From Methylococcales bacterium (GTDB lineage Bacteria > Pseudomonadota > Gammaproteobacteria > JABHGC01): a stretch of DNA of 64,000 nt. The stretch spans positions 4,734 to 68,733 of the forward strand of contig JABHGC010000099.1 in NCBI GenBank assembly GCA_018672285.1. The letters are read 5' to 3'. The notes beneath the pieces are model-generated. The model had not been told where the DNA came from, did no database searches, and saw nothing but the letters and a program-made list of their open reading frames with translations. Within the stretch, counting starts at the first letter, position 1. Each line of letters opens with the position of its first letter. A program made the position numbers and the translations under genes. Positions 17,248-61,900 of the stretch are shown here, piece by piece.

Positions 17248-17251
17248 TGGG

Positions 17252-24183: not shown

Positions 24184-24285
24184 CCTTTTTTGTAAATTTT
24201 TTCAATTTAATTTTCAAAACAATATATTCTTCTTTTTCTTGGTTTTACTTCTTATTATTCAAACAACAAAAAACCCATAAATAAA

Positions 24286-28747: not shown

Positions 28748-29728
28748 TTACCGAGAGGCTCTCTCATGTCGCTTTAATAAGTACCGGTATCGTGATTTCT
28801 TTTTTAACTGCGCTATTTTACGTATCGCTTTAGGGTTGCCTAATCTAGCAGACTGCACCAACCAATACGCCGCTTTATCTAAACGCTTACGCTGAAAAAA
28901 TGTCAGTGCTTTTTCAAACTCTTTTTCCCCTGCACCTATTGACGGTACAATAACCGCATTATCATCAGCTATATCATCGGCAGCAACATCATCAGTCTCA
29001 GCAGTTTCGCTTGTGTTTGCGACCAACTGAAAATCGAACGTCGTACTTGCAGCAGTTAATGCAACCCAGTTCTGCTTCATCTGATAACCAGGCGCAGATA
29101 CTTCTATATGATACCGTCCAGGTGTCAACAACATACCTGGCTGATATTTAGGGGCAATATTAAGCACTTTAATTTGAGCACTCGCAGGCACAACCGTCAC
29201 ATTCAATGGCAAAGAGACAGCACCTGCCACTATAGGCGCTGCCTCAGGTGCGCCTGCCAACTGCCTTGCCAGATCAGGCAAACCAACACTAGGCAACAAA
29301 CCCAGCTCAGCCTCTGGCGATACAATTTGACCACTTTTTAGTATTTCACCCGTTGTTGCATCTAACAATTGAGCGGTCACGGTCACCATATTGCCAAACT
29401 TAACCACCGTCCCCGTCACAATGGCCTGAACACCATACAGATCTCCCACCTTATTAGCGCGGGCCTTATCGCTCACATGCTCAGAGCTAGAGAGCACCTG
29501 CTCATCCAACACTTTACGAATTAATATGCGCTCCATCAGCTTAAACTGCTGCGTCGAGCTTAAAGGGTGAATAAAGGTTTGTGCAAGCCCCTTACCCTCT
29601 AGTGCAACCCCGCCACTGACTTCAAAATCAACGACGGCGACGTACATTTTTTCTTCGGCAGAAAAACCAACAACACTATATAGACACAAGCAAAAACCAA
29701 TTAATATTTTATTCATCATCATCGTCAT
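28748..29728 (-). CDS. exported protein with CsgG-like N-terminal domain, PEGA-like domain and Sel1-like C-terminal repeat; translationally coupled to the NRPS gene
   Basis: Signal peptide. YVAVVDFE...G..LAQTF...ERILIRKVLDEQVL...GVQAIVTGTVVKFGNMVTVTAQLLDATTGEIL matches the CsgG/FlgP-type lipoprotein-fold motif pattern. PGRYHIEVSAPGYQ is PEGA-like. KAAYWLVQSARLGNPKA is Sel1-like. The start overlaps the NRPS stop by 13-20 nt. Confidence 0.5.
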   Translation of the reverse strand: MTMMMNKILIGFCLCLYSVVGFSAEEKMYVAVVDFEVSGGVALEGKGLAQTFIHPLSSTQQFKLMERILIRKVLDEQVLSSSEHVSDKARANKVGDLYGVQAIVTGTVVKFGNMVTVTAQLLDATTGEILKSGQIVSPEAELGLLPSVGLPDLARQLAGAPEAAPIVAGAVSLPLNVTVVPASAQIKVLNIAPKYQPGMLLTPGRYHIEVSAPGYQMKQNWVALTAASTTFDFQLVANTSETAETDDVAADDIADDNAVIVPSIGAGEKEFEKALTFFQRKRLDKAAYWLVQSARLGNPKAIRKIAQLKKKSRYRYLLKRHERASR

Positions 29729-35700: not shown

Positions 35701-38700
35701 ACAGCCATCAATTCTTTTAGCATGACCTGGCTGGACCAACCATCAGCAATAATATGATGGATGGTTAACATCAATACATGATGATTGTCGGTCAACTGTA
35801 ATACAGTACATTTAAACAGTGGGCCTTCAGCTAAATTAAAGACGGTATTTTGATCTTGTTGTATTCGGAGCCTCACTTCATCAGATTGGCGCTCTATGTC
35901 ATAACAGCCAATATCAAACTGCTCAACAGTCACGCGAGCCTCTGGGTCAATCACTTGAACGGCAATGCCTTGCTCATCAGGGAAACGTGTTCGCAGCACT
36001 TCATGGCGCTGACTAATCGTTGTAATAGCGATTTGTATTGCAGTAACATTCAGCCCACCTTTTATGGTGACTGCCGAGGCAATATTATATTGCGTTGACT
36101 CCGGAATGAGATTTTGTATAAACCACATCCGTTCTTGGGCAAACGATAATGGCGCCCTAGCAGACATTGATTCATCTCTAACTTGAATATCATTCGTTTG
36201 GCCTGCTTCAAGTTGCACAATATTTTCCGCCAACCTTTTCACTGTCGGTTGCTGAAAAATATCCGCCAGTGGTAGCTCTACAGCATATTGCTTTCGTATC
36301 CAAGATATTAACTGTGTGGCAGACAAGGAGTGCCCACCGAGTGCAAAGAAATTATCTTCAACGCCCACTTTACTAATGGCCAACAATTCAGACCAATACT
36401 GACACAGCTGCTTTTCTAAAGTTGAGCTAGGTGCGACATAGCTTAACTGTTGTAAATCAGGGGTAGGCAATGCTTTTTTATCAATTTTGCCATTAGGCGT
36501 CAGCGGGAATTCTTGTAATGAGACAAACCGTGTTGGCACCATATAATCGGGTAGGAAGGTGGCAATAGACTCACTCAACAACGCTTGATCAAAGCTCCCC
36601 ACTAAATAGGCCACTAAAACATCATCAACAACCATCACAAAGGGGTGTAGTTTTGCATCATACCCTCTGATAGCAAACTCAATTTCGCCAATTTCAATTC
36701 TAAGCCCACGCAATTTAACCTGACTATCAACTCGACCCACAAAAACCAATTGACCATCGGCTCGGTAATACACCAAATCCCCTGTTTGGTACATTTCCTG
36801 CCCGGTAGTAGGGTTCTTTATGAATACTTTCTGGGTTTTTTCAGCATCATTAATGTAGCCTAAGCTCACCCCTGCTCCTGAAATATAAAGCTCACCTGTA
36901 ATTCCAATCGGCACCGACTGTAACTGACTATTGAGCACGAGCAGGGACACATTGTCGTTTGGCCGACCGATAGGAATGCTGTGCCCACCCTTCAAGTCTT
37001 TTGACTTAAGCTCATAAAAAGCAGCGATATCAGTACATTCTGTTGGCCCATAACTATTAAAAACGGTGACAGATGACTGAGTGCAATAATCCTTAATTTT
37101 CGATCGCTCTATCGGCTCACCACCCAAACAAATCGATTTAAGTGATGACAACGCGCCATATTGTGATGGCAATTCACATAATGGATAAAATGCACTTGGC
37201 GCACAGTTCAATAGCGTTGGACGATATTTACTCATGGTATTCGCAATATCATCCACATCGTAATGGTCAAACTGAGGAAAAATCAAACGCCCGCCTTGCC
37301 AGAGCAATGCAAAAAGGTTCTTCTGGGTTAAATCAAAACCAAGCGCACTAATGATAATGGCGCCATCCGCCTCGTCAATTGAGAGTGTTTTGGTGTACCA
37401 ATGTAATAAATTGGCAATACCAGAATGCTTCACCCCAACCCCTTTTGGTTGACCTGTTGAGCCTGAGGTATAAATCATATAGGCCAATGCGTTTGACGTG
37501 GTTGCAACGGTAGAAAAGGTGGCAACATCAACTTTAACCGGCTTATCAAGGTCCACTCTAATACCTGAATAATCAGGTAACACATTCAGGCGTGACTGAG
37601 ACAGCAATACTTGAGCTTGGCAATCCTCAACGATGTATTGCAACCGAGCGTTCGGGTAAGTGGGGTCTAATGGCACGTAATAACCACCGGCTTTTAGCGT
37701 TGCCAATAAGGCCACGATAAAATCAGCACCTCGGCTGGTACAGATTGCAACCGCTTGGTTAGATGTGATGCCTAAGCGTTGCAATCTCGTTGCCAAAGAC
37801 AATGACTGCTGTTCAATATCTCGATATGTAAAGCACTGTTCACCTTGCTGAACGGCTAAAGCGTCAGGGTTGTTTTGCATTTGTAACTGTATTGCATCGA
37901 TGATATTGCTGTAATTTGGCTCATGAATGGCTGACGTATTATTCCAGCGGTCCAACTGGGCATTTTCTTCCCCAGTTACCCACGATAAATCAGCAATCGT
38001 ATCAACGCCCTCAACAAACTGTTCAATCACCGACTTCAAGCGTCTCATTGCGGCAAAGCTATTAAAATCTTGTGTGTGATAATGGCATTCAAGCAAGAGA
38101 TCATCACTCATTTGCTTTGCAATGAGCTGAACTTGGCCAACAGGTACTCTTGGTGGGTAATGCTGCAAACGCTGCTTTTGCCCCATAAAATCAATGATAT
38201 GGTGAAAGTCATAGTAATTATAAAGAAAACCAATTCGCCCATGTTGAATCAATTTTTGCTGCTGCAACACAGAGATATTTTGTGCAGAACCCAACTGTTT
38301 TTGGGCTTGCTTAATGTGGTTTAAATACTCACTCAGTACATTAGATGGTTGCATTAATGCTTGTTGAAACAGCACTGGGACTTGCTGATAATAACAGCCT
38401 ATCGCCCTGTTATGCTGTTTTTTACGACCAGAGATAATTTCATAGACAACAAAATCATTGGTAGGGCGACAATATTGCTGTAAAAGCAACCCGTAAAGTG
38501 ATTTCAAAACCAATGAAGGTGTTGACTTATGGCGCCGGCATGCAGATCTGAATTGCTTCCACAATGCGCTACCAATCGACACACTGTCACACAACTGCTC
38601 CACCTTTGTGACGTCCGGCTTCGGAAAATCAAGAGGCTGAACATCTTTAAGTTTGGATTGCCAATGTAATAAATCATCTGCAAGATCAAATACAGCGGCT

Positions 38701-41700
38701 TGGTCATGAACATAATCCGTAAAATCGACAAACTCAGGCTGCCATGTTTCACCAGAAGACTGTGCCTGGTACACCTGACAGACTTGCTGCATGTGCAACG
38801 TGCCACCAGCACCATCAATTGATAAATGATGGCCTGCCAATAAACTCACATAATGCTCATCTGCCAACTTAAACAAATAATGACAAATCAATGCATCTTT
38901 AGACACATTAAACGACCGGTAAACTTCAGCATTGATGTAGTTTAAAAATTCTGAATGACTCAGTTTCATAGCGGATAGATCACGATAATCTAAAGCCACT
39001 TTTTTGGTTTTTGCGACCGCTAGATAGGCCATATCTAAATACGGCTTATCCGCAGGGACAACATCAGTCCGCAGTACTGAGTGCACATTGGTCACAACTT
39101 GCAATGCTTGCGCCCATTGATCAGGGTCAATATCCGTTCGCATCTCAAAACTACAGCCGAGACTATTATCCAACGTATCAGCATGCACATGGCTATGCAT
39201 ATACAAATCACGCTGAGTCGACGTTAACGGGACAATATACTCGTAGTCCTCAGGATTGAGTGACAGCGCAAGGTACATTTGGTGGTCAGGAAATAAAGCA
39301 TAACTCGACAACGCTTGATCCGGCAATGACACCATTTGCCCGAGTAAATATTCAAAGTGCCGTGAAAATTGCTCGATAGTGGATTGGTCAAACAAATCGG
39401 TATTGTATTCAATATTTCCGACTAAATTGTCGCCATGAGGAGAGTCATGCAACATTAAAATCAAATCGTATTTAGCCGTATCGGTTGTTATTTCATAAGA
39501 ATCAACCGATAACGCCTCTAATGTCATATTGGTCGATGGCATGTTCTGTAATGCAAAACCAACTTGCGCGATCGGTGGGTAACTTAAATTTCTCTCAGGC
39601 TGCACCGCATCCACTAATGCTTCAAATGGCAAATATTGATGTGCAAAACCACCCACCACCGCTTCTCTGGTTTGCTGTAGCAATTGCTGACCGGTCAAGT
39701 TACCGCTTAACTGACCCCGAAAGACCAAGGCATTGACAAAATATCCAAGCATGCGTTCTGTTTGTGCAGATTCCCTACCCGCAATTGGCGAGCCGACGAC
39801 AATATCGTCCTGTCCACTATACCGAGACAGCAATAACTGATATGTCCCTAATAACAGCATAAACAACGTTGATTGATTGTCTGATGCGTATTTTTTAGCC
39901 GCATTCGTCACTTCACCATCAATGGTAAAGGATAACGTTCGGCCATTGGTTGTTTGCACAGCAGGTCTTGGCCGATCTGTTGGTAATGAAAGCACCGCAG
40001 GAATGCCCTTAAGCTGGGAGACCCAATAAGCGAGTTGCTCTTCTAAAACGTCACCTTGTAAGTACCCTCTTTGCCAATGTGCAAAGTCTGCATACTGAGT
40101 ATGTACCGGTTGTAGCAGTGTACCTTTACCTGAATCATGGCTTTGATACAGCACCATTAACTCTTCATTAAAGATGCTATTCGACCAACCATCAAAAATA
40201 ATGTGATGAATATTCACACAAAGGATGTGCAACTCTTCTGACAAAGCCACACACATGACCCTAACAAGATCATCATACTCTAGATTGAACGGGGTCAGAG
40301 AGAACTCAGAGATCAAGGCATCCACATCACTACCCGAATCTTCAGCAGGTGACTCTATCGACACCCAATTGATGCCCAAAGAGGATTTTGGCATGATTTC
40401 TATGGCAGCCGAACCCACTCCCGAGACAATTTTAGCGCGTAATATTTCATGACGAGCCAACATATCATTCAGCGCAGCTTGCAGTGCAACACGATTCAAT
40501 GGGCCCTTTAGCTGGATGGCTGACGGGATGTTATAAGCTGGACTTTCAGGTTGTAATTGGTACAACAACCATAACCGCTCTTGAGCGAAAGTCAGCGGTA
40601 TGGTATTGGCTCGGTCAATGGCTACGATTTGTTGTTCATTAGGCTTTATTTGCTGTAATAACCGGGCAATCTTTTCAATGCTAGTGTGGGCAAATATATC
40701 TTTTAAAGCAATCGACAAGCCCATCTGCTGATCAATTTTCGTGATCAACTTTATTGCAAGCAGTGAGTGCCCTCCGAGCGCAAAAAAGTCATCTAATACA
40801 CCAAATTCTTGCGTAGGTAGCAGTGTTTGCCATATTTCAAATAAAGCCGTTTCCCAGTAATCCCTTGGTGGCACGAGCGCCACAGGCGTGTTTAGGTCAC
40901 CACTTTGTGACAGTTTTATTGCTAACGCTTTTTGCTGCTCAATAGAAGCCTGACACGCATCAACAGAGAGCAATGTTAGCTTTTCAACTAAGACCCCAGG
41001 CGACTCAACAGCCAAAGTTAATAACTGGATATAATGCTCAGCCATAGCAGAAATACTGGTCGAAGAAAACCGAGTGACATCAAACTCCAACGCCCCAGCA
41101 ATGCCTGAATCTACCTTCTCTAAGGTAATACTGACATCATATTTAGCGGTATTATGCGCCAATGCATACGATTCAACATCAAGGTTTGAAAAACCATCAG
41201 AAAAATCAATATCGGACTGATTTTGAAAGGTAAACAGCGTTTGAAAAATAGGTGGTTGCATTGTGTTTCGCACAATATTTAGCGCGTCAACAATTTGCTC
41301 AAATGGGATCACTTGATGAGTAAAGGCATTCAACAAGTCATGTTTAAAAGCCATCAAATATTGATCAAAGCTCAGCTCAGCGGCAACATTAGATCGAATA
41401 ACAACCGTGTTCACAAAAAACCCTATTAATGGCTGAACTTCATGCCACTGCCTGCCTGCAACAGGTGTCCCTACACAGACGTCATGCTGAGATGAGTACC
41501 TGTGCATCAACAAACAATAACCACTCATCAAGATCATATAGAGCGTCACGCCTCGAGCTTTTGCCATTTTCTCAAGCTCGACCACCAATTCATCAGGCAA
41601 TGTAAAGTGGTACAAATCACCACGACGCTCAACACCAGGTTCAGGTTCATGATCAAATGGAAGAGACAGCACCACAGGGTCAGCCAAATACTTCAACCAG

Positions 41701-44700
41701 TAATCATAATGCTGTTGAAACTCATCATCGCCCTCTAGCAATCGCTGCCAAACAGCATAATCACCATACTGTATGGGCATTGAGTCTATCGATACAGGTT
41801 GATGCTGTGTATAACTCTTATAAAAGGCGGAAAGCTCTTTAAACAAGGTCCCCATTGACCAGCCATCGGAAATAATATGGTGCATATTCAAATATAAAAT
41901 ATGCTTAGCATCATGGCACTTTATTAAACTGCATTGAAATAACGGCCCTCTCAAGAAATTGAAGGGCTGACCTTGTAATTCAGATAAATAATTGGCTAAC
42001 AGGCGTGATTGCTCTGCTTCTGAAGCATCAGAAATATCAAACGTTTCAACCGTCAGCTCCAAATCGCCCAATAAAATCCACTCCGGATCTTCCGACTGAT
42101 CATTCACGATTGACCGTAATATTTCATGACGACTCACAACAGAACTGAGTGCTGCTTGTAACGCTGCAATATCTAGCTCGCCTTTTAACGTCACAGCAAC
42201 AGGAATATGGTACGCCGTACTATCTGGCTCTAATTTTTGTAAAAACCAAAGCCTTTCTTGAGAAAAAGACAGCGGCACACTACTGCCAGGCTCTCTCTGC
42301 TGAATATTCACAAGACCACTTGCCGAGCTTGATTCACCTTTTAATGTGGCAATAGCTTGACAGAATGTTTGCAACGTTGGCTGATCAAAAATCAGCCTGA
42401 CTGGCAACTCAATCTGGTACACTTTCCTAACATAGGAAATTACTTGGGTTGCTAACAAAGAGTGCCCACCTAAATCAAAAAAGTGGTCTTCTAAATAGAC
42501 TTGCTCTAGTGATAATAAATTCTTCCAAAGCCCCGCTATATCTAACTCAATATCTGTACTTGCAGGTGTTTTCGACGCTCTTTGTGTGGTTGGCTCAGGT
42601 AAAGATTGGCGATCTATCTTCCCGTTCGCCGTTAATGGAAACGCCGCCAGAGACACAATAACACTCGGCAACATATAATCTGCTAAGTCGACTGCCATCG
42701 ATTCAGCAACCGCCTGAACATCATTATTACCTGTGATATATAAAACAATTCGTTCATCACGAATTTGAGCTAACGCTTCTGTCACTTTATCGCATTGTCT
42801 TGCGATCGATTCAATCTCACCTAACTCAATACGCAAACCACGTAATTTGACTTGATGATCCGTCCGTCCATCATAAATAAGGTTATAATCCTCATCATAA
42901 TGTACAAGGTCCCCCGTTTTATACAGTGGCACAACGCGCCCATCCGGGAAAGACACATTAACAAAGGACTCAGCAGTCTTAACCGCATCAAACACATAAC
43001 CTTCACTTAAGCCAGAGCCACCAATATACAGCTCCCCTTGAAGACTAGGTACAGTCAGTTTTCGGTTAGAATCGAGTACATATAACTGCACATTGTCATT
43101 CGCTTTACCTATCGGTATTTCTTGTTCTAAACCGTGATCACTTTTAACACGATAAAAAGCGGCTATATCTGTACATTCAGTCGGCCCATAACTGTTAATC
43201 AGTTCTGCAGATTGATACTGTAACCAGGGCTGTAATCTGGCATATTCAATACGCTCCCCGCCCAATACAACCGTCGTCAAGCTGGCTAGATTGGACCAGT
43301 ATCTTTGTATCTCTGCGACCGCATAAAAAGCACTAGGCGCGCAGTTAATTAAAGTCACCGAATGCATTGATATGGCAGAAACAATATCATCAACGTCGTA
43401 TCGACTGCTCACAGGAAAAACAATCGTGCCGCCCTGCCATAATAAAGAAAAAATATTCTTCTGCGTTAAGTCGAAACCCATTGCACTGATAATAATCGCT
43501 GATGAGGATGCGGTTATCTTCATTTCCGAGCAATACCAGCTAAGCAAGTTCAATGCTTGCCGGTGACGAACAGCAACCCCTTTTGGCTGGCCTGTAGAGC
43601 CGGAGGTGTAAATCATATACAGGCGATCAGATTCAGACACCTGAACAATAGGTAAAGCATCGATGTGATGGGTGTAATCAGCGTCGACATCAACCCACAG
43701 TGCACCCCCTAATTTTTTAGACAATGTGGTGTTGGTCATTACCACGGCTATATTTGCGTCATTTAAAATATAGCGAATACGCTGATCGGGGTAATCTTGA
43801 TCCAACGGTACATAGTGAGCCCCTACCTTTAATATCGTGACAATAGAGACGACAAAATTAAGGCCTTTCGGCAGCACAATCGCAACCGCTTGACCAGGCT
43901 TAACACCTTGAGTCAATAACTCACCAGCCAACTGATTAGTACGAGTCTCTAAGGCTTGATAGCTTAGAGAGTCTCGCCCTTGCTTAATGGCGATTTGCTC
44001 AGGATTTTCAGTTGCCGCTTTTAAATACGGTGCAAGCACAGAACCGGATGTATTGGCATGAGGCTGATGAGACTGCTCAAAAGTTGCCATCACTTGCTGT
44101 GCTTCATGGGCATTTAAAAAGCAATATTCAGAAATCATCGCTTCTTGCGTTAGCAACGTTGCTAAAAGCTGTTCAACCCTCTGTAGAAAATCGACTTCAG
44201 TGAACACTGATGCATCATAATTCAAATGTAAAGTCAGACCACCCGGTGTTTCTTTTGGCACAAAATGAATTTCACCAGGGCGTGGCATAGCGGCATTAAT
44301 TTCAATGGATGCTTTCTGACCCGAGATATCAATCGCGCTAGGCATATTGAAATAGTTATAAATAAAATTCAGATCAGATGGATCAAACAATTGTGAATAT
44401 AAATTATTTGAGATAAAACGGGTATCAGAAACGCTTTGTTTGAACTGATAGAAATGTTTAATTAAATCAAAAATCACACTCTCTTTGGTGAATAATTCAG
44501 CGGTATACACTACCGGTAATCGTACGTAGAAGCAGCCAATACTGCGTAAATTTTTACGCGTTCGCTCACCTAAAATATCACTCACAACAAATGGGTGATC
44601 CACACGTTGATAGTGCTGCAATAGCATGACATAACACGCTCTCAATATTGCAGGAATACCAATTCTATGGACTTGAGAAAAAGCAGTTAAATCTGTAAAA

Positions 44701-47700
44701 AGTGCACTGGGCAATGGCCGCTGTATAGAACGGATATCGGTATCACCCTTTTTCCGTCCAAGTTGAAAACCTTCACAATCATGACCATAAGAAGCCCACG
44801 TTTGATACACTTGCTCGGTATCATACAGTTGACGAATATCTTGCGTGTCTTCAAAGCAATTTCTGACGTCAAATTTTGGCACCTCATTGCTTGCAAGCGC
44901 GTTATAAATACGAGAGAAGTAGTTAACATAGAGTGACTCAGAAAAACCATCCATTAATATGTGGTGCACCGCAAATATAAATAATGAGCGCCCATCTTCT
45001 AGCAGAATCAGCTTATGCTTTAGTAATGAATGCTGAATAATTTGATAGGGTTGATAAACAAAATCATCCACTAAGGCTTTAATTTGGGCCTCTGATACCG
45101 CTTCAGAGCGCGTTTCAATCTCAAGTGACACCGTTTTTTGGTGACGGATGGCAAAGTACGCAGGTTGTAAATAAGGCTCTGTTGAAGCGATAACATCTGC
45201 ACGAAGAACCTCAGTATTATCTTGAATCCATTGCAAGGCATCGCGTGCTAAAGATGGATCTAGCTTTTCATTCACCACAAACGATACACCAATACTGCTT
45301 GAAAGCGTATCAGGATCTAATTCACATTCAATATACAAATCTCTCTGTACAGGTGTTAACCTTTTTATACCTGAATAAGCCTTAAAATCAATTTGTAAAC
45401 AGTGGCCAAGTTGCACTTCATCAAGCATGTGTGCAGCATGGATATGTTGCTGCGGCGCCGTGATCAAACTGAGCAAGATTGCTTGATAGTTTGCAGCAAG
45501 ATCCTGTATTGTTTTATGAGAAAAAATATCCGTTTGATACTCTATAATCCCCTCAAGACCACTGTCTTTCTCCACCATCACTAACATCAGGTTTAACTTA
45601 GCAAAGATGACAGGCATCTCTATCTGCTCAAGTGACTGACCATCTAACTCAGCATGAATGTCACCCATCATTTTAGACTGCAAGCTGAATGCAGTTTGAA
45701 ACAACGGACTTTCAGTGGTGCTTCGATCGATACCAATATGGTCGACAATTTTTTCAAAGGGCGTATCTTGATGCTCAAATGCCGTCAAGGTGTTTTGTGT
45801 CACCCTTTTGACAAAATCAATAAAACTTGGGTTGTCACCCGATTGATTACGCAAAGGCAATGTATTCACAAAGCAACCGAGTACCGAAGACCACTTTTCA
45901 CGACCTCTTCCTGAGACCGCAGTACCAATGCAAATGTCTTGCTGTTTGGTATAACGCGTTAATAACACATGATAGGCCGCAAGCATGACCATAAACGTGG
46001 TTGAATTGACGTTTGCCACGAAGGTGGCTAATTTTTCTTGCGTCTCTTTCGCCAATGTAAAGGTAACTGCCCCCCCCTTAAACGTCGGATCTTTAGGCGC
46101 CTTATAATCTACCGGCATTGCTAAATTAGAGACATTTCTCAGGTGATTTTTCCAATAGCCTAATTGTTGCTGCAAGACCTCATCAGACAACCATTGTCTC
46201 TGCCACACCGTGAAATCGAGGTAATCATATTCTTTTGCTTTAAATAAAGGGGCTTGTCCTGCTTTTCTGGCGTGATAGGCAATTTGAAAATCTTCCAATA
46301 AGACATTAACCGACCAACCATCCATAATGGCATGATGAAAATTGAAGATAACCACCATCTCGTCATCAGAGTGCTTGAGCAATTTAACCCGCCACAATTT
46401 TTCCTCTGTTAGTGCAATCGGTTTCTTAACTTCTTGGGCAACGTAGTCTTGGACTTTTCGGTTAAACTCAGCATCATTGAGTGCGGCGTAATTTTCTACG
46501 ACAAATTCTTCTGGATCATACGCTGATACAACCTGAAATGGCGTATTGCTGTTACGCTCTTGAATGCGAGTTCGTAATACTTCATGACGTCTTACTAAAT
46601 CATTAATCGCCTGCCTAAGTACGGTTAACGTCAAATTCGATGTAATTTTAAACGCAAATGGAATGTTGTATACAGCCGTATCTGGTGCAAATTTTTCGAC
46701 AAACCAAAACCGTTGCTGAGCATAGGAGAGAGGCTGATTTATTGTCCGTTCAACTGAGACGACATCAGGGAAAACTGCCTGTTGATTGTCTTGCTGACAT
46801 TTACGAATATGCCCCGCTAAGGCGGATAACACAGGGTAGTCAAAAATAGTTTTCAACGATAACGTGAGATGTAACGTTGCCTCAATCCGGCCGACCAATA
46901 CCGTCACTAACAGTGAATGACCACCTAACTCAAAGAAATTATTTCCTCGACCGACCTCATCGACGAGTAAGATGTCCTTCCAGATAGCGGCTAATAATTT
47001 TTCCTCTTGTGTATCTGGCAAATCAATCACTTGATCTAACTTCACTGCCTCAGGTTCAGGTAATGCGCTACGATCAATTTTTCCATTCGCGGTAACAGGC
47101 AACATATCTAGTGCTACAAACGCCGCAGGAACCATATAATCAGGCAAACGTTTCTTTAAAAAGTCGGGTAAGACCATACGAGGGGATTCTAATCCGACAA
47201 CGTAAGCGACCAACCTATCAGGCATGCCCTTGCTTTGATTCAATAGGACAATAGACTCTTTAACACCTGAATAATCCAATATTGCAGACTGAATTTCTCC
47301 AAGCTCAATACGATAGCCTCGTAATTTAACCTGAAAATCTGTACGGCCTAAACACTCTATACGTCCATTATGCTGAAACCGGCCAAGATCACCTGTTTTG
47401 TACAGCCGCTGAACGCCCTGACCTTCAATATCTACATCAATAAAAGATGACTCTGATAACTGAGGTAAATTTTTATAGCCCCGCCCCACTAATGTACCAG
47501 ACACACATATTTCACCCACAACCCCTGCAGGAACCAGCTGGTTGTGAACACTTAAAATATAAATTTTAGCATTGCGTATTGGCTGACCAATATCAGGTAT
47601 GCCTAAGTCACCATGGCTTGTCACTAGTGAGTGCGTTGATACAACGGCACACTCTGAAGGCCCATATAAATTAACCAGCTCAAAAGGCAATGTCTCAGGA

Positions 47701-50700
47701 ACGTAACGGTGCAGCTTATCTCCACCAACACCCAATACTCTCAAACTGAGACTGTCAGGCCAAGGTAAATCCAGCGCGACTTCTAACATGGGCGTTGGCA
47801 TGAAACCCGCGGTAATTTTACATTCATTGAACCACTGAATGGCTAATTCAGTATTATGTCTGACATTATCATCAGCTAAATGCAAACAACCACCAGATGT
47901 TAATCCGACCCAAATTTCCCAAACTGACGCATCAAAACTCAACCCCGCAAATGACGTCAGCTGATCATCAGATGTAATTTCATAACAACTTTGATACCAT
48001 TCAACCAAATTGATAAGAGAGTGGTGCTCTATTTGCACACCTTTAGGCTGCCCTGTAGAACCTGAAGTATAAATAATATACGCTAACTGATTACCATCAA
48101 TAGGCGGCAAGCTAAGCACAGGAAACGCACTGATTGCCCGCAATTTTTGATCAAGATACAAGCATAAATCAAGATCAATTTTTTCTTCTAAATGCAAATA
48201 TGAATGCGATACAACGACTTTTGTCCCAACATCGTTAGCAATATAAGCAAGACGTTCTAAAGGGGTATTGGTATCCACAGGAACATAACACCCCCCTGCT
48301 TTTAACACCCCTAAATACACAACCATCAAGTCAAATGAACGCGGTAAAAAGACAACAACCGGGTCTTCACGCTTAATACCTTGAGCAATTAAATAATATG
48401 CCAGCTGATTTGATTGCTGCTCGAGTTGGTCGTACCGAAGGTATTGACCATTAAACTCTAAAGCAGGGCTTTGACCTGCTGCTTGAATAACTGCTTGCAT
48501 TAAGGTGATAACGGAAGAGTGTTGTACAGGCCGCTCTGTCGCATTCCAGCTTGATAACTGTTTATAATCTTCGCTTGTGAGTAAATTCAAGGTCTGAATA
48601 TTCGCCGTCGGCTGATTCATCACCTGCTCTAACACGCCTTTATAATGACGAGAAAACTGATGTATTGTCTGCTCAGAAAACAAACCATCATCATATTCAA
48701 ACGCACACTCTAACGTGCTCCCTTTCTGGCTCACGATTAAACTGATTTCAAATTTTGCTGTTGTCACATCAAGCTCAACCGGCTCAACAGTTAATTGATC
48801 AAAAGCGCTATCGAACTTAATATCACTATTATTCTGATAAGAGAAGAACACTTGAAACAAGGGCGAATGGTGACTATCTCTAGCAACAGACAGCCTATCC
48901 ACTAACTGCTCAAAAGGGACATCTTGGTTTTCATAAGCGTCTAGACTGATCTTTTTTATTTTTTGCAACAGATGAATAAAGGAGTCGTCTTCAGCACACG
49001 TTGCCCTCATGACTAAGGTATTAACAAATAATCCAATGAGTGGTTCTAGTAACTGGTGATGCCTGCCTGCAATCGGCGTCCCAACACAAATATCATCTTG
49101 ACCAGAATAGCGACTGAGCAAAACCATATACGCTGATAACATCAACATAAATGGGGTCACTTTATGGCTCTCAGAAAACTGATTCAACCTTTTTGCCAAG
49201 TTCGAATCCAGTGTCATCAGTCGCGTTTTTCCGGATACGGATACGTCTCTAGAGCGCGAAAAATCGGTAGGTAAAGAGATAACGGGGGTATTATTTAACT
49301 GCTTTTGCCAATATTGGTATTGCTGTTCAACGGCTTCAGCCTCTAAGCCTGAGCGCTGCCATGCAGCATAATCAACATATTGAATGGCGAGAGGAGAACT
49401 TGGCAAGCTGACTTTTTGAACTATCGCATTATAAAAATCAGATAACTCTGAAAATAAAACACCCAGTGACCAACCATCAGAAATAATATGGTGCATACAC
49501 ACATACAAATACGTTGAGTCAGTTCCCCGTACAATATGTGTCAACCATAATGGCCCTTGGCTTAACTCAAAGTGATAATTGAGGCACTGCTCAGCAATTT
49601 TGCCGTTTGCAACATCAAACCTTTGCTCATCATAAGCTGAATAGTCATGTACAAAAATAGCGGGTTTGTCATTACGGCCCAGAATTTGCCGCAGCTGACC
49701 TTCCACCTTGCCTATGACTGAGCGTAATACCTCATGTTTTTCAGCAACATACTCAATGGCAGACACTAAAGCTTGAATATCAACAACGCCTGTCAGCTTT
49801 AAACCAACAGGGATGTTATACAACGTACTTGACTCAGTATATTGGTGTAAAAACCAAATTCTTTCTTGTGCAGATGACAACGGCAAAGCAGCATCACGAG
49901 GAATAACAGGAATGTTTGCTTCAGATTGTCCTTGCCCCCCTTTTGGCAACGCTAATACAAAGTCAGACAGCACCGTATGTTCAAATGCAAATGAGACGGG
50001 CACTTTAATATTCAGGTTTGTATTTAGCCTAGAAATTAATTTCGTCGCTAACAACGAGTGGCCACCAAGCAAGAAAAAATCATCTTCTAAATAAACGACC
50101 TCTCGCTGGAGTAAATTTTGCCATATCTCAGCAATAGACACCGCCATTGGGTCACTCGGCAGTGTTTGGATAACATCAACACTTTTTATTGACTCACCAG
50201 CTAGGGCTTTACGGTCAATTTTACCATTGGGAGTCAGTGGGAATGCCTCTAAAAAGCATAACTGAGCAGGCACCATATAGCTCGGTAACGATAATTTTAA
50301 GGCGGCCTTAACAGTCACCTGATCACCAGCCCCTGTGACAAAGGCGTGTAACTGCTCATCTTTCACAAGTGCGATGGCATCTTTAATACCCGGGATTACT
50401 TTAATCGCCGATTCTATTTCACCTAGCTCAATCCTAAACCCACGGAGTTTGATTTGGTGATCGCTACGGCCAACATACACCAACTCGCCTTCCTGCATGA
50501 CCACAAGATCGCCGGTTTTATAGGCAGTGGTCTGCTCTTGATTAGCAATAGACAATGTCAAAAACTGAGCTTTGGTTTTCTCAGCATCTAATAGATACCC
50601 TTGGCTAACTCCTGCGCCTGCAATGTACAGCTCACCAACCACACCAGGCACACATTGTTTACGCTCGGCATCGAGCACAAAAAGCTGAACATTGTCATTG

Positions 50701-53700
50701 GCATGGCCAATCGGCAGTGGATATGGCTTATCATAAACCCCATCTGTGATTTTATAATACGCGGCAATATCCGTACATTCTGTTGGCCCATAACTGTTAA
50801 TCAAGCTTGATTTATTGTGTGATAACCAATCAGAAATAGCAGTAAGTTCTATTGGTTCCCCCCCTAACACCACTGTTTTTAAGGAAGCTAAGGCACTCCA
50901 ATTCGCACGATTTTCAACCAATGGATAAAAGGCACTTGGCGCACAATTGATATAACTGATTTGTAAACGTTCAACCGTCTCAACAATGTGATCCACGTCG
51001 TAATAATCAGACTCAGGGAAAACTACCGTGCCACCTGACCACAAATTAACAAACAAATTCTTTTGCGTTAAATCAAAGCCCAATGCACTGATAATCAATG
51101 TTTTTGATGTTGCAGACGTACTCAGCGTTTTCTGGTACCAAGATAATAGATTAATCACGCTTTTCTGGGTAACGGCAACCCCTTTAGGTTGGCCTGTAGA
51201 ACCCGATGTATAAATAATATACGCCAGCTGTTCAGGTTCAATAGTCACATGGGGTGCTTCATGACCAAAGCCATCCAAACAACCGGCTTGTCTTAAATCT
51301 AGCTGGCACACGATATTTGCGTCTATGCCTGCGTGAATAAGAAATTTCACTTCAGCATTATCTAAAATATATTCAATTCTATTTTCGGGATAGCTTGGAT
51401 CAATAGGCACATAGCACCCACCTGCTTTTAAAATCGCAATCTGAGCCACGCTAAAATCAACAGATTTTGACAAGCCAATAGCAACAGGCTGATTGGTCTT
51501 CAAGCCATTGTCTAATAAGTAGTTTGCAATTTTATTAGAACGCTCATCAAGTTCTCTATAGCTTACCTGAGTATCTCCTTGAACCAAGGCAATGGCATCA
51601 GGTGTCGCTTTAACGTGTTGCAATAAAGGTGCTAGCAAACGGGGGATTTCTTGCTGTGACACGGCAGAGGATTCACGCAACTGCTGCAGATCTGCCTCTT
51701 CATTCGGCATTAAATACGATAAATCAGATATCATCTCTGCTTTATGGCAGATTTGATGAACTAAGTGAATATAACGATCAATAAAAGACAGGTCATCGAA
51801 TACGGCCACATCGTAGTTAATCATTAACTCTATGCTGTCGCCTCTAACCTGAGGAACAAAATGAACCTCTCCAGGTCTTGCATGTGCAGGGAAAATATTA
51901 ATAGGATATTGTTCTGCACCTATATCAACACTACTTTTAAAATTAAAAAAATTGAATATATAAGTTGATCTACCTGTATTGATATTGTCTTTAATAAATT
52001 CTGTCGTAACATTCCGGACCAATTTATCATGTGCTTCAGAATAGCCAACATGATTAAAGTATTCAATGCACGTCAAGTCACCAGAAAAGTCTTTGGCAGC
52101 GTAATATTTAGGCTCTGCACTAAAAAAACAACCGAGTACAGCCTTATTATCCTCATTTCTTTGGGCATTGATATTCAGAACCACAAAATCTTTTTCCGCG
52201 CGACAATAATGGCTCAATAATAAAACATAAATCCCCCGCAGAAAACGTGCTACTGGAATCGAATTTTCATTACAATATTGCTGTATTTCTTTATTTTGAC
52301 TGACTGTCATCAACCGGTTTTGATTCACGATTCTTGACGAATCACTGATTAATTTTTTAAAGTCTAACGGCTCAATATCTTCACGTTTTTTCTGCCAAAA
52401 TTGATAAGCTTGTGCTTGATCAAACTGGCCCCGCAACTCGGGCACAAAAGATGAAAATGGTTTCACGCTTTCTTGCTCAGGGTCATCTGATGTTGAGCAA
52501 TGATATTGCTGCATAACCGCATTCAAATACAGTGACTCTGAAAAGCCATCCATCATCACATGATGCATTGCAACGATTAAAACGCACTTACTCGGGGTAC
52601 TGACTAATTTATGTCTAATCAGTGGGTGCCGCTCTAAGATATAAGGCTGATTGATAAAGGCCTGTGTAAGAGAGGATAACTGAGTATCATCAGTGATTGT
52701 TTGTGCTTCAAAAAAGGTATTTTTTTGCTTTTTAACCGCAAAATAGACATTTTTCATATCTCCTTGCAGTAGCGTTTTGACCTCAGACCTTAGCAGGTCA
52801 TTCGCGTCCGAAACCTGTTGCACTGCGTATTTAAGCCTTGCAACATCGATATTTTTTGGTAATTCAATCGCACAACCAATACTACTGGATATTTCATTTG
52901 GATTTATCTCAGCCGACAAAAACAATGAATGCTGTACCGGGCTCATTGCAAAGGCACTTAAATACGTTTCGTTTGATAAACCGAGTAACAACAACGCGTC
53001 TGCTTTTGGCAGCCAATCGATGGCACTCACAGGCGCAGAGCTGTTATCAAGAAAATATTCAATTAACCCTGTCAATGCATTTAGCAACGCCGTCAGGTTT
53101 TTAGGTGATATCACTCCCAATTGAACTTTTAAGGTCAGCTCATAAGCATTACCCGAGGTATTAGCCAACATGACAATTTTTGCGTTATGGCTTAACTCAT
53201 CACACCTTGCGCCCTGAATGCTTTGAAAATGAAAATCATCATGCTTTAGCGGACACCCTTTAAGCGCAGGCTTTACAATCAAATCTTGTAATTCAGGGTT
53301 ATTGGCTAAATCACTTTGGTATAGCTGAACAAAAGAAAATGCATTCAACGCTAGATCATAATTTTTCTGAGCGGTTATTAGATCTGCTGCAGTCCATGTG
53401 ATTGACTCAACATGCTGCCACTGCGTCAAAAGCAATGGAAACAACGATTGTAATACGGCGTCTTTGGTTAGCTCATGACGGTGACAAAATTCTGCCAACC
53501 GTGAACACAGTGCCTTGTCCACTGAGAGACTTGCTTCAGAAAACTCATTCGAATCAACCTGCGCGGGCAATGTATAAAGGATCTCATCTGTCACAATGTC
53601 ATGGAGACAATTCTTCTGAGCATGGTCAAATAAACGGTATTGATTACCAGAAAAGTGAATAACTGCCTTTCCAAGGCGTGAAATAGGTTGCTCTTGATGA

Positions 53701-55955: not shown

Positions 55956-58900
55956 TTGATTTTTTTCGACGCCTTGTTTTTTTAGTAAGGGGTTTGATAT
56001 CTGCAATTTTTTGACTATCAGCGACTTTGTCGGCCAAGTCAATGGCTTTTGAAAGACCTTCTAAAGTCGGCTCATCAAAAAATACCTGCAAAGGTATTTT
56101 GCACGAAAATTGGCTCAATATTCTAGAAAGTACTTGTGTCACTAACAATGAGTGCCCGCCAAGCTCAAAAAAGCTATCACCGCGATTAACTTTGTCGATA
56201 CTGAGTACTTCACACCAAATTTTCGCCAGTGCTTTTTCTGTATCCGTTTCAGCTTCACCACTGATTTTTTCAGTAGAGTCAATATGTTCTGGCGCAGGCA
56301 GTGCTGCACGATCGACCTTTCCACTATCGAGTAAAGGTAATCCATCTAAGTGAACGAACGATTTAGGTACTAAGAATTCAGGGAAGTAGCCATTGAGGTA
56401 ACGCCTTAAGTGACCCATTGTATGAGTAGATAACCAATAATGTTCAGATTGCATAACACTAAGCACACTCTGATAAAACCGTACCTGTGTTTCTTTATCG
56501 ATATTTAATTGAACACTGGCGAAGGTATTATTGACCCACAATAACTTGCCCTCAACCCAGCTTGAAACAGACTCACCTGGAAGTGCGATCAGCAATGATA
56601 TCAAGTCATCTTGACGACACTCTTTAGGTACATTTTTAAGTCGAATATACCCCACGGACAAATCTTCGGTATCCACTTTATACAAATGCCCCGAAGACAT
56701 TAATTTGAGCTGGCACTGTTGATGCAACGGTACCCTGAGACGTGAGCGTCTTGGGTCTGAGACATTCAATCTTCTCAAGTCAAATAAATTAAAGCCATGA
56801 TCAGCAATGATACCTGAAATCATATCACTGACCTGACCGACATCTTCACTTAACTCTAACAAAATGCCAGCAGATCCGGACTGGCACCACACCATTTTAC
56901 CGGTAATTTTTCCGACCTGAGGGAAGTTTTCTAACTCGAGGCTGACTCTCTGCCCTTTTTGCCAGTAACTTGGCACGTTCATTAACTTCAAGCCACGCTT
57001 TGAGATATCTTCAGTGGTCACGGTAACAGGGTCATGCCCTTCTACTCTTGCTGTACAACTAATTTTAAACAGCACTCTATCAGCAACAATGCTCGACACC
57101 AAATAGGCTACTAACCCCATTTGCCCTTTCTCATCTTTCCTAGCCACCACCACACTTTCATGTACGGCAGGATGCTCATTCAATACCGCTTCAATCTCTT
57201 CTAACTCTACCCGGTAACCTCTAATTTTAATTTGTAAATCAGAACGACCTACGTATTCAAGTTCCCCTGTTGCTAACCATCGAACCAAATCTCCTGTCTG
57301 ATACAATCGGCTTTGTTTGCTACTAGAAAACGGATTATGAATAAACCTAGCCTGAGTCATTTCCATTTGATTCAAGTAGCCCGAAGACAAACCTTCACCC
57401 GCGATGAACAATTCGCCAACAACACCTGTCGGTACAACATTCAAGTGCTGATCAAGCACATACACCTGGTTATTATTAATCGGCTGACCAATGGGCACAG
57501 ACTCACCTATGTGGTGCTTATCCGCAACACCAAAAGTCGCATCGATTGTCGCTTCAGCAGGCCCGTACAAATTAATTAATTGGCAGGATAAACGGCTGAA
57601 AAATTGTTGTGCCAACTCTTGAGGGAAAACTTCACCACCACAAAAAACGGTTCGCAATGAGGTACATTCTGAGAATTGTGGTTGCGCGACTAATTCGCGC
57701 AATAAGGTCGGTACAACTTGCAACAAAGTAATCTGCTGGCTCAATATCAACTCAATTAAGCGTTTTGCATCACCCACTTCATTTAAGGTCGTTACTTGGT
57801 TTTCAACTTGATTGGGTGCTGGCAGCGCGGCATAATCAATTTTACCATTCGCAGTGAGCGGCACAACATCAATTGAGACAAACGAAGACGGAATCATATA
57901 TTCAGGAATTCTCAGCTTAATAAATTGCCGAATATCCACAAACTCTATGTTGGTCGGTTTAACGATGTAACACACAATTTGTGGCTCACCGTGGCGATCA
58001 TCTTTAACAATGGTAATATTTTCTTTAACACCTGGGAATGCTGCAATGGCGGACTCAACCTCACCAAGCTCAATACGATAACCCCGTAGCTGCACTTGAT
58101 GGTCCATTCGGCCTAAATACTGCACTTCTCCGCTAGGTAGATACCGAGCCAAATCACCAGAGCGATATAACTTACCTGGAATACCCGGAAGTTGAACAAA
58201 GCGGCTTGCCGTCAACCCAGCCCGATTATGATAACCGCGCGCAACACCCTCACCAGACACACAAATTTCACCCGGTACACCCACTGCTACCGGCCTATTT
58301 TGGGCATCTAAAATATGAAGTTTCAACCCATTAATGGGTTGGCCTATAAAGTTCAAGGTGCTCATGGTTCTCAGGGCGAAATCAACATCTTCCTGTGTCA
58401 CCGGCCTGCAGGTCACATGTACAGTCGTTTCCGTAATACCATACATATTCGAAAGCTTAGGCTGGCTATCACCGTGGCGCATAACCCAAGGCTTGAGCTT
58501 TCTATAGTCTAAAACTTCGCCGCCAAAGATGACTTCTCTAAGTACCAGTGCATTTTCATCATTATCTGCCGACCTGAACAACTGCTCTTCTGCAGAGATC
58601 AACTGATAAAATTCTGATGGGGTTTGGTTAAGAATGGTCACTTTTTCTTTCACGAGCAACTGATAAAATGCTTCCGCATCTTGACTGCAGCTATCTGGCA
58701 CCAGCACCAAACGGCCGCCATACATTAATGCCCCCCAGGCTTCCCACACTGAAAAATCAAAAGCACAAGAGTGGAACATAGCCCACACATCATTGTGATC
58801 AAAATCAAATAATGGTGCTGACTGATCCATCAGACTTAAAATTTGAGCATGTTCTACCATCACACCTTTAGGCTTACCTGTTGATCCAGAAGTATAAATC

Positions 58901-61900
58901 ACATAAGCCAAACGACTGCTTGAGATACTAATATTAACCGACGTATTTGGCTGTGAAATAACACTCTTATCTTGTGTTTCAAGTATTTCAATATCCTGGC
59001 TCGCAATACCTTTAATCGTTTTAACATGTCTTGGTTGAGTAATGACGAGGGGTATTTCAGTATCTTCAAGAATCCACTCAACCATATCTTCCGGTGCAGT
59101 AGGGTCAAGCGGTACATAACAACCACCTGCTTTGAGTACGGCCAGCATAGCAATCACTTGGTCTACAGAACGGTCTATAAACAAGCCAACATATGTTTCC
59201 TGTTCAACGCCCATTGCCAATAAACAATGCGCCATTTGATTGGATCGGTGCTCAAGCTCTGCATAGGTAAGTTGCACATCGTCATATCCCACAGCAACTT
59301 GCAGTGGGTAGGCCTCAACCATCGCCTCAAATCTTTGCACCAAAGACCCTGACACAGGCTCACTGTCAACCTTGTTATCAGGCTCAATGACTGAGCGCTC
59401 AACAGGTAACGACAGCATCCCTAAGGTGACAGGACTTTCAACAATTTGTACGAGCAGTTGCTGCAGCTGATTAAAAAAACCAAAATCGGTAAAGTGATGA
59501 GAATGGTAAGTCAGTGTTAACCTTAAGTCAGACCCCACCTGCTCACTTGACAACCATACAGAGGACTCTTCATTCTGGTTGATCATTCCGTGATCGGTAT
59601 AATAAAATGCGGTTTTTCCTGTGGTGACAGGCTGATCTAAACAAATGCCACACAACAGTGGTAGCTGCTCATAAATCGTCCGACAACGGTTTAAACGTGC
59701 CCACAACTCCTGACAGGTTGCGACCTCATGAAATAGCTCAGGTGAAAAAACATACAACACTTGATTATCCGCATTCTGAACGGGGAAATACCCTTCAGGT
59801 CGACAATATTGATATACCCACCAAGCTTGCAGCCCAATCAAACATTCAAAAATTTTCATCGAATGGCTGTCACAATACTGCTGAAGTTTTTGGTGCAAAT
59901 CTGGACTCAACGTAAACTGCTCTGTTTTCCAGGCACCGGTATCTTCAACCATAACCGGGTAATTAAGTGCTTCTATTTGGTCATAATCACGTTTCCACTC
60001 TGCGATAATGCCACCCAGGTAACACAAGGTTGGGTTATAAAATGCGGCATTCATTTCTAAAACAAGTTCACCACCACTTAATAGCGGTAGCCAAAATTCT
60101 GTGACAGATGCATCAAAGCTCATTGGTGAGCGCTGCAACATCCGATCAGATTCGCTCAACTCAAATTCTCTCTGCATCCACTGCATGTGGTTATATGCCG
60201 CTTTATGAGGAACCACAACCCCCTTCATCGCACCGGTACTACCAGAGGTATAAATCTGATACATCGGATCGTTGGTTGACACACCACTGATTAAATTTTT
60301 TGTGCTGAGCGTTAAGACATCTTCCCAGCCTTCATCCACTAAAAACAGCTGCATTTGTGAACGTTTAAACTGGCGCCCACGGATAGAATCGGTCATCAAC
60401 ATTAAGGGTTTAGCATCTTGCAGCATCTGCTCAATACGGTCTTTCGGACAGCTTGCGTCAAACGGAATATAACACCCCCCAGACTTAGCCACCGCTAGCA
60501 TAGATATAACCAGCTCTATTGAGCGTGGCAAATGAATACCAACACTAATATTTGGACCAACATTTTGCATCCGTAGCCAATGCGCGAGTTGATTGGCCTT
60601 TTCATTTAATTCTCTATAAGTCAGTTTTTCATGGCCTAATGTGACGGCTATCGCATCCGGCGTATATTCAGCTTGATCCTCAAACAACTGGTGCACACAG
60701 ACACGCTCAGGAAAATCAACTTGGGTATCATTCCATTCATTCACCAAACGGTTTTTCTCAGACTCTGGCAATAAAGAAATTTTGGCAATGGGTGTTTCTG
60801 GTTGGCGAATAATGTTATTTAACAAGACTTGAAGCTGACTTAAAATACGCTCAATGGTTGCCTCTTCAAACAGATCGGTATTGTATTCCATTTGAGCGAT
60901 CATGCCTTCTTGCGACTCACTCAAACTTAACCACAAATCAAATTTTGCAGTGCCATTGTGACTATGAAATAACTCGGCATCGACATCTGGTAGTGAGAAA
61001 GCTTCAAGCGGGGTGTTTTGCATGGTGAACATCACTTGAAACAAGGGTGATCGACTGGTGTCACGCTGCGGGTCTAATTCATCGACTAGTCTCTCATATG
61101 GCACATCTTGATTTGAAAATGCACCAAAAAAGACGTCACGAACTCGCCTCACTTGTTCTTGAAAATCAATATCATCATCTAGCGTTGTCTTAATCGCCAA
61201 CGTATTCACAAACAAACCAATCAAGTGCTCAACTTCAACTCGAGTACGGTTCGCAATCGGGAAACCGACCATGATTTCACGTTGACCTGAATACCGATAA
61301 AGCAGCACATTAAACGCGGCAAACAAGGTCATGCCTAAGCTAGCGCCATTGCGCTCACTTAGCTCTTCTAAACCAACAATCAACTCAAATGGAATCAGCC
61401 TTAAACACTGCGCCCCTTGGTAACTTTGCACCAATGGCCGAGGATAGTCTGTTGGTAAATTAAGCACGGGTACATCACCATGCGCCCCGATTTGGTCACG
61501 CCAAAACTCAATTTGTTTGGCCAACACCTCATCGGTTAAAAATGTGTTTTGCCATGCAGAGTAATCAATATACTGAATAGGTAACGCACTCAATCGAACA
61601 GATTTCCCACCAATAAACGCTTTATAAGCGGTCAAAAACTCTGAGCAAAACAAACCGAGTGACCAACCATCTGAGACGATATGATGCATGGTAAATAAAA
61701 ATAAATAATCATCTTCATCCAACACCAACAACTTAGCTCGAATCAAAGGTGGTGCTGTTAAATCAAACCCCTCCGTTCCCTCTTCATCCGCTAAACGCTT
61801 CGCCTCAGCTTGACGCACTTCAGCTGTATCACCTTCTACTTCAATCACAGTAAAAGGCACTTCATCTACCTCTGCAACAAAAGCGACCGGCTCTCCTAAC

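Follow-up and report, generated by a model that had tools for sequence, protein, structure and literature searches.

Why would a nonribosomal peptide synthetase (NRPS) place two condensation-type domains in front of a single adenylation domain? The question is raised by a 64,000-nucleotide stretch of DNA from a Methylococcales bacterium (contig JABHGC010000099.1), referred to here as the window, in which one gene encodes an NRPS of 8777 aa. Three of its modules hold, between the condensation (C) and the adenylation (A) domain, a further domain of the condensation superfamily, which we call C'. It belongs to a separate clade found in many other NRPSs, has kept the catalytic motif of condensation domains and is coupled to amino acids whose side chains are nucleophilic. 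As its function we tentatively favour a second acyl transfer, onto the amino acid that the module itself loads.

Each of the three C' domains is about 420 aa long, stands directly before an A domain and lies 3' of an ordinary C domain of the LCL type (condensation of two L-residues). In a self-BLAST of the NRPS, seven C domains were similar to one another (29-38% identity) and the three C' domains were divergent, both among themselves (23-29%) and from the seven ordinary C domains (~20%). The Pfam Condensation profile (PF00668, cutoff 30.6 bits) matched each C' with 95-117 bits over profile positions ~4-454 of 456. Self-BLAST, motif scans and Pfam thus bear out the original prediction, which a model had made from the letters of the window, of an extra condensation-superfamily domain between C and A in three modules. 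The motif scan recovered all the strings it had quoted: HHVMMDGFSESLY, HHILMDGFSESLY and HHLSIDGAGGTLH, the xxGC(F/Y)(F/Y)xxxP strings AVLGCFFSAEP, RSIGCFYVRLP and RAIGCYYQQVP, and the (F/Y)N(F/Y)(F/Y)(N/D)(F/M) strings IFNFFNF, IYNYFNM and LYNYYDF.

The domain order of the NRPS, with T for the thiolation domain or peptidyl carrier protein (PCP), is C-[A remnant]-C'-A-T / C-A-T / C-C'-A-T / C-T / C-C'-A-T / C-A-T / C-A-T, that is, 10 C-type domains against 6 A domains, plus a T domain that has no A. Matches to the Pfam families Condensation, AMP-binding and PP-binding run all along the protein, and Pfam and motif scans found no thioesterase (TE) domain in it. The features concerned are the following, by window position:

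29709-56042, minus strand: NRPS gene, 8777 aa (open reading frame (ORF), Pfam, motif scans, self-BLAST)
54669-55916, minus strand: LCL-type C of module 1, residues 43-458 (452 bits with the LCL hidden Markov model (HMM) versus 101 with the C' HMM; motifs)
54267-54572, minus strand: N-terminal remnant of an A domain, residues ~491-592 (Pfam AMP-binding profile positions 2-107 only; BLAST, HMM)
51693-52946, minus strand: C'1, HHVMMDG, residues 1033-1450 (C' HMM 320 bits, LCL HMM 87, epimerization (E) HMM 24)
50073-51620, minus strand: A after C'1, code DLKNVGSDIK, homoserine-type (code per PMC7524897, PMC12283262)
45468-46733, minus strand: LCL-type C of module 3, residues 3104-3525 (HMM scores, PDB matches, motifs)
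44103-45359, minus strand: C'2, HHILMDG, residues 3562-3980 (C' HMM 335 bits)
42483-44030, minus strand: A after C'2, code DLKNVGSDIK (specificity code)
40653-42275, minus strand: A-less C-T unit, C residues 4590-5012, PCP ~5060-5130 (motif scan, self-BLAST, Pfam)
39333-40601, minus strand: LCL-type C of module 5, residues 5148-5570 (self-BLAST, HMM scores, motifs)
37959-39230, minus strand: C'3, HHLSIDG, residues 5605-6028 (C' HMM 483 bits)
36348-37895, minus strand: A after C'3, code DLKNCGSDIK (specificity code)

Two details of the predicted layout had to be revised. What had been counted as a fourth module is an A-less C-T unit, located directly 5' of the C-C'-A-T module with C'3. The C and C' of module 1 are not adjacent; they are ~570 aa apart, separated by the A-domain remnant and degenerate sequence. 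This intervening stretch (window 52947-54572, minus strand, residues ~491-1032) consists of a ~100-aa A N-terminal remnant followed, up to C'1, by ~430 aa almost without domain similarity, whose sole trace is a 38-aa match to C'3.

Relationship of C' to the known condensation classes

The original prediction had called C' epimerase-like and had considered epimerisation in cis or dehydration among its candidate roles. HMMs were trained on context-labelled domains of other proteins, comprising 17 E domains with the EGHGR motif, 16 C domains directly following those E domains (DCL, condensation of a D- with an L-residue) and 150 LCL-type domains from T-C-A contexts; the C' HMM was built without any window-derived sequence. 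The three C' domains scored 320-483 bits with the C' HMM, 77-113 with LCL, 72-96 with DCL and 18-35 with E, and the corresponding values for the seven ordinary C domains were 101-129, 440-519, 168-216 and 61-107. BLAST comparisons gave a median best bit score for C' of 351 within its clade, ~70 to LCL and DCL domains and 37 to E domains. In a neighbor-joining (NJ) tree of 135 domains (Poisson distances, 100 bootstraps), C' was monophyletic in 100/100 bootstraps and apart from the context-defined DCL domains. By these sequence comparisons, C' branches deeply within the condensation-domain superfamily, as a clade of its own.

The domains that precede C' scored 440-474 bits with the LCL HMM and 61-102 bits with the E HMM, and their best matches of known structure are LCL domains (TycC, DhbF, Txo, FscG). 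They carry the canonical C1-C4 motifs, as had been predicted (e.g. SYAQQRFW, RHEVLR, HHAIMDGWS, YLDFTVW, HQDTPF). C-C'-A-PCP is thus a non-canonical architecture whose upstream partner is a genuine C domain and not an E domain, as HMM scores and PDB matches agree. An unusually arranged but canonical pair of E and DCL domains, the case against which the prediction had been set, is excluded by the LCL identity of the preceding domains, by the 72-96 bits that C' reaches with the DCL HMM and by its separate clade.

The solved structures that match C' best are BacC (E = 9e-28), TycB1 (3e-21) and the first C domain of PvdL (2e-20), which are DCL or starter-like and belong to the D-clade; matches to DCL domains (e.g. 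TycB1, BacC, McyB) range from E = 1e-28 to 1e-18, and those to domains of the DCL or starter (Cs) type from 1e-28 to 1e-20. DCL domains after E, such as TycB1, BacC and McyB, also share with C' the position immediately before A. They differ from C', which is preceded by LCL instead of E and scores far higher with its own HMM than with theirs.

An assignment to E is contradicted by the HMM scores, by the weak match to the TycA E domain (E = 1e-5), by the position after LCL and before A, not after PCP, and by the EGHGRE motif, which is found neither in the three window C' domains nor in any of the 124 family members described below. The segments that had been read as resembling motifs E5 and E7 fall at the ordinary C5 motif and at the strand with the conserved Asn, and by this placement are family-specific versions of the two, not E motifs. 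A dual E/C domain does not fit either, as C' does not follow a T domain. Domains of the modified-amino-acid (modAA) class were very weak matches, with E = 4.8e-4 for AmbE and 2.2e-7 for McyA against 1e-28 for the best match. The bacillamide heterocyclization (Cy) domain matched at E = 1.7e-9 only, and C' has HHxxxDG and no DxxxxD. Two condensation-superfamily domains also stand before one A domain (Thr, Ser or Cys) in VibF-type Cy-Cy-A modules, where they divide the labour, but Cy domains have DxxxxD, whereas C' and its LCL partner both have HHxxxDG.

We consider it very improbable that C' is an epimerase acting in cis or a dehydratase of the modAA type. Such a role would agree with its HHxxxDG motif, its superfamily and the Thr and Ser modules of the family, but it is at odds with the scores and matches above, the missing EGHGRE and the lack of a preceding T domain. 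In addition, most of the substrates described below (homoserine-type, 2,4-diaminobutyrate (Dab), Orn, Lys) are incapable of beta-elimination; dehydration in particular is unlikely, since the modAA reaction is not open to Dab, Orn and Lys, the residues of many members.

Distribution, active site and acceptor residue

A search with C'3 and its A domain yielded just three true C' proteins. A profile search of 1.84 billion representative proteins found 150 NRPSs, from which domain parsing gave 124 full-length C' domains, 83 of them in the context T-C-C'-A and 33 in (protein start)-C-C'-A. The protein pattern Y-x5-DF-x3-E-x3-GR-x8-GC-x5-P occurs in 40 of the 124 and in 0 of 590 other C domains, so that it can serve, as protein or as DNA, as a detection signature for the family. 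Back-translated to degenerate DNA and run over 185,579 species genomes, it matched 66 genome stretches, 65 of which were true C'. In total, about 180 copies were found in about 200 NRPSs, almost always in the order T-C-C'-A-T.

Most members come from marine Gammaproteobacteria, the others from Brevibacillus, Bacteroidota, Aminicenantes and Burkholderiaceae. Carriers include Pelagibaculum spongiae, metagenome-assembled genomes (MAGs) of Methylococcales, Luteibaculum oceani, Aminicenantes and Brevibacillus laterosporus. The genome matches were mainly to Ketobacter, Spongiibacteraceae, the BD1-7 clade, Moraxellaceae MAGs and strain HdN1, with further ones in Cytophagales, Dongiaceae, Aminicenantes and Burkholderiaceae. 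The Brevibacillus C' was obtained by tblastn of plasmid records and lies in a hybrid of polyketide synthase (PKS) and NRPS with the order T-C-C'(196 bits)-A(DIWELTADDK)-T. In B. laterosporus B9 (NZ_CP011076.1, 948143-989420; locus L001), this 4288-aa hybrid, with an A domain of the Dab/Dap (2,3-diaminopropionate) type, is encoded by the ORF at 11595-24461; it is kept across strains of B. laterosporus and B. halotolerans, and the stretch carries no annotation in the record.

The active site is intact almost throughout the family. In the HHxxxDG motif of the 124 C' domains the second His is conserved in 98%, the Asp in 100% and the Gly in 94%; W189 (98%), R268 (98%), P284 (97%) and N337 (99%) are further conserved residues. 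This conservation of the catalytic His, Asp and Gly argues that C' is an active enzyme. The LCL partner upstream of C', which keeps HHxxxDG in 101/120 cases compared to 423/472 for other C domains, also looks active, and two intact catalysts, LCL and C', imply two reactions. It is accordingly improbable that C' is a functionless by-product of recombination events that placed C'-A-T units behind resident C domains. Scars of such events are present in the cluster, namely the A remnant before C'1 and a half-A and half-C' in the NRPS gene upstream, but these true remnants are visibly decayed, whereas about 180 full-length copies in distant phyla keep their active-site residues at 94-100%; the non-random association with certain amino acids also argues against drift.

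The three A domains after C' in the window NRPS have the common code DLKN(V/C)GSDIK, and the pattern DLKNxGxDx has been assigned to homoserine (PMC7524897, PMC12283262). They had been described as close paralogs, of which the common specificity type holds; with 44-47% identity to one another, compared to 31-38% to the other A domains of the NRPS, they are not very close paralogs. That C' travels with a particular type of A domain proved true family-wide: a code for homoserine-type residues, Dab, Thr, Orn, Ser or Lys, all with nucleophilic side chains, follows C' in 112/115 modules, compared to 118/419 other modules of the same proteins (odds ratio 95, Fisher p = 1e-45), and in 52/53 modules of the independent genome loci. 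The majority code is DLKNxGxDx, the rest being Dab (DIWE(M/L)TADD), Thr, Orn, Ser and Lys, and no Asp or His code was found among the 115 and 53 modules. The A codes of the modules upstream of C' are diverse; since the acceptor codes are restricted and the upstream ones are not, the link of C' is to the acceptor residue. All of these acceptor residues have a second nucleophile.

The layout of the window NRPS, including C-T-C-C'-A-T, recurs in Pelagibaculum spongiae (WP_116687287, P0004), and C-T-C-C'-A-T is also found in P0011, P0059, P0064 and L064; the relatives P0033 and P0037 have A-less C-C'-T units. C' can moreover head a protein, as in P0143 (C'-A(Ser)-T, 1077 aa) and in P0118/L030, where it begins the first gene of an operon, and many upstream proteins end in ...T-C. 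Because of these protein boundaries, C' behaves like a starter domain.

The same boundaries could mean that C' is the real elongating C domain, with the upstream LCL domain belonging to the previous module, in a transfer or tailoring role, or serving A-less carriers. A split between C and C' would mirror the usual split of T-E from DCL-A-T, C' is fused to A as a normal C domain is, and A-less C-T and C-C'-T units recur beside C-C'-A-T modules. We nevertheless regard this as unlikely, given that the LCL partners are ordinary domains with intact motifs and that C' is strongly linked to the acceptor amino acid and not to the residue before it. To our knowledge, ordinary LCL domains have no tailoring role.

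Possible function

The only experimentally characterised module with the order C-C'-A-T is module 3 of the icosalide synthetase IcoA, LCL-CI-A(Ser)-PCP, where CI denotes an embedded chain-initiating C domain. In vitro, this CI domain N-acylates Ser-S-PCP with a 3-hydroxyacyl thioester, and the LCL domain has been proposed to attach the upstream chain afterwards to another nucleophile (PMC6553374). The likeness lies in an LCL-type C domain followed by a non-LCL C domain that is fused to an A domain loading a hydroxy amino acid, with the catalytic His kept in both, as in LCL and C'. C' also occupies a starter-type position, directly N-terminal to A, whether 3' of LCL, as in the 83 and 33 contexts given above, or at a protein N-terminus. 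By description, the two differ in that IcoA has a single embedded domain and a lipid nucleophile, whereas C' occurs thrice in one NRPS and its family is confined to residues that have a nucleophilic side chain, for the most part homoserine-type and Dab.

C' is apparently catalytically competent, sits on the acceptor side and is fused directly to the A domain. From architecture and conservation we infer the following activity, nucleophile and donor. The A domain would load a homoserine-type residue onto the PCP, and C' would acylate one of its two nucleophiles, either the alpha-amino group or the OH or NH2 of the side chain. The donor would not come from the preceding module and would most simply be an acyl-CoA or acyl carrier protein (acyl-ACP) thioester. 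The upstream LCL domain would join the growing chain to the remaining nucleophile, and three homoserine positions of the product would bear acyl caps or be linked through the side chain by ester or isopeptide bonds. Double acylation of this kind would explain why both active sites are intact, why C' stands on the acceptor side and behaves like a starter at protein N-termini, and why the residues are restricted to bifunctional ones. That a second acyl transfer, onto the amino acid loaded by the same module, is carried out by C' is in our estimate a serious possibility, if still short of probable.

We are more hesitant to extend this to the family as a whole. C' may possibly represent a widespread class of embedded second condensation domains for residues whose side chain bears an OH or NH2 (homoserine-type, Dab, Thr, Orn, Ser, Lys). 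Each such residue would be acylated twice, giving N-acyl-homoserine-type units joined by ester or isopeptide bonds of the side chain, in multi-tailed or branched depsi- and isopeptides of marine Gammaproteobacteria. Tandem C-C-A-T modules have earlier been noted singly, for icosalide (PMC6553374), megapolipeptin (PMC11411415), cystomanamide and jagaricin. In the literature that we searched there was no report of embedded C domains that form a coherent clade, are catalytically intact and are tied to residues whose side chains are nucleophilic.

Several observations weigh against a second acyl transfer. No acyl ligase, free ACP or acyltransferase partner was found in the window, and beside the 65 genome loci no acyl-activating gene recurs among the 25 of 53 neighbouring Pfam families listed. 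The C' clade has no resolved sister group in the NJ tree, and the known starter structures CDA-C1 and RzmA-Cs gave weak, partial matches. The precedent of IcoA does not explain the side-chain restriction of C', because the second nucleophile of icosalide is on the fatty acid. With three C-C'-A-T modules in one assembly line, the product would be acylated or branched to an unusual degree. That the DLKN code stands for homoserine is taken from two papers and not from an assay of this NRPS. Finally, an AlphaFold 2 (AF2) model of C'1, built from an alignment of the three window sequences, was too poor to use (mean predicted local distance difference test (pLDDT) 48.7).

The neighbours of the genome loci (59 non-NRPS ORFs at 65 loci) include eight class-III aminotransferases and six exporters of the major facilitator superfamily (MFS), again among the 25 of 53 families listed; the aminotransferases are what would be expected for a supply of Dab. 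One context with a lipid donor for C' is given by P0162, a single-module C-C'-A-T protein encoded directly after genes for an FAAL-like (fatty acyl-AMP ligase) enzyme, a thiolase, a type II thioesterase and a free-standing carrier protein. With the code DVWTINAVTK, its A domain departs from those usual after C'. Further genes that precede P0162 on the same contig (Logan SRR20218960, 1-14905; L068) encode a fatty-acid desaturase, an NRPS of the order C-A-T and a fusion of radical-SAM and TauD.

This fusion gene, ~9 kb upstream of P0162 and the single TauD case, bears on a different explanation, in which C' would be a non-catalytic docking platform that holds a trans-acting tailoring enzyme by the carrier-bound amino acid. 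Such a platform is known as the interface (I) domain and can be detected by antiSMASH 8. Reitz and colleagues reportedly described it in 2019 as inserted between C and A in the NRPSs of beta-hydroxy-Asp and beta-hydroxy-His siderophores, where it is said to be non-catalytic and to work, on modules for Asp or His, together with hydroxylases of the TauD type. I domains have no T domain directly before them (PMC10212144). By description, C' resembles them in its superfamily, in the same C-X-A slot with no T directly before it and in its tie to the module's own amino acid. It differs in the 94-100% conservation of its His, Asp and Gly and in serving homoserine-type, Dab, Thr, Orn, Ser and Lys modules, with no Asp or His code in any of them. 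No TauD or other hydroxylase was found in the window, and none recurs beside the 65 loci among the 25 of 53 families listed. We judge a docking role to be unlikely.

A different use of two C domains has been proposed for MgpC, the megapolipeptin synthetase, in which a C-C-A(Thr)-T module has a starter-like second C domain outside the LCL group and the products hold Thr-alloThr from this single module (PMC11411415). By analogy, each C-C'-A-T module might be used twice, with one peptide bond made per C-type domain and two copies of the amino acid inserted. The tandem C-C-A-T for a hydroxy amino acid, the 10 C-type domains against 6 A domains in the window NRPS and the existence of A-less T domains speak for it. 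MgpC, compared by description, differs in being a PKS-NRPS hybrid of Burkholderiales that makes two consecutive Thr and in the HHxxxDR of its second C domain, which is not seen in the 124 C' domains. Double use would leave unexplained both how two rounds could proceed on one carrier domain and why the residues are restricted to those with nucleophilic side chains, and we consider it slightly less likely than a docking or an elongating role.

If C' does carry out a second acyl transfer, product-prediction tools, which assume one condensation per module, would mispredict hundreds of NRPS clusters at these residues, in organisms such as Ketobacter, Spongiibacteraceae, Pelagibaculum, strain HdN1, Methylococcales and Brevibacillus laterosporus. 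The extra C' would then mark a residue whose side chain is used, and module 3 of icosalide would be generalised from a single curiosity to a common type of NRPS module. C' may also give an engineering handle for peptide branches or acyl caps. Interest in the family would grow with a confirmation of double acylation.

Surroundings of the NRPS gene

The NRPS is fed by the product of a second NRPS gene, located upstream:

55942-63993, minus strand: upstream NRPS gene, 2683 aa, A-T-C-[A N-terminal half]-[C' C-terminal-half remnant]-A(Thr, PilZ insert)-T

Its middle part (window 59203-60750, minus strand, residues 1082-1597) is a mosaic of partial domains that precede the complete Thr-type A domain, consisting of the N-terminal half of an A domain (residues 1082-1313) and then the remnant of a C-terminal half of C' (residues 1333-1597). 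The remnant shares 22% identity with C'1 (E = 1e-14) and likewise with C'3 (E = 7e-8). The mosaic looks like a recombination scar, and it seems that C'-A-T units are transferred as blocks into modules already in place.

The last A domain of the upstream NRPS contains a PilZ domain (PF07238, 48.6 bits, E = 1e-12, two stretches). The insert lies between the A core and its C-terminal subdomain (window ~56480-57080, minus strand, residues ~2305-2505) and has both the RxxxR (RSRLR) and the DxSxxG (DISKRG) string, in different repeats. PilZ domains usually bind cyclic di-GMP, and a PilZ domain within an interrupted A domain would be unusual.

At its C-terminus, the 8777-aa NRPS has a strongly acidic tail (…DDIDLQLAELDGMSDEEMDAMLNNLMDDDDDE), possibly a docking element. 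A 20-nt overlap at the NRPS stop codon with the gene for a CsgG-like lipoprotein of 326 aa (window 28748-29728, minus strand) suggests that the two are co-translated. After the CsgG-like gene comes a 1343-aa glycosyltransferase fusion of GT4 and GT2 (window 24286-28317, minus strand).

The window covers nearly the entire 65,965-bp metagenome contig, so there is no further cluster context. In its remaining part, the 1460-aa ORF at 5848-10230 (plus strand) had no significant Pfam match. Four tandem flagellin genes (283-287 aa each) and fliD (window 18105-24099, minus strand) adjoin the NRPS cluster; a receiver-GGDEF protein is encoded near the flagellin genes at 16336-17247, and a CheW-receiver fusion at 1847-2791.

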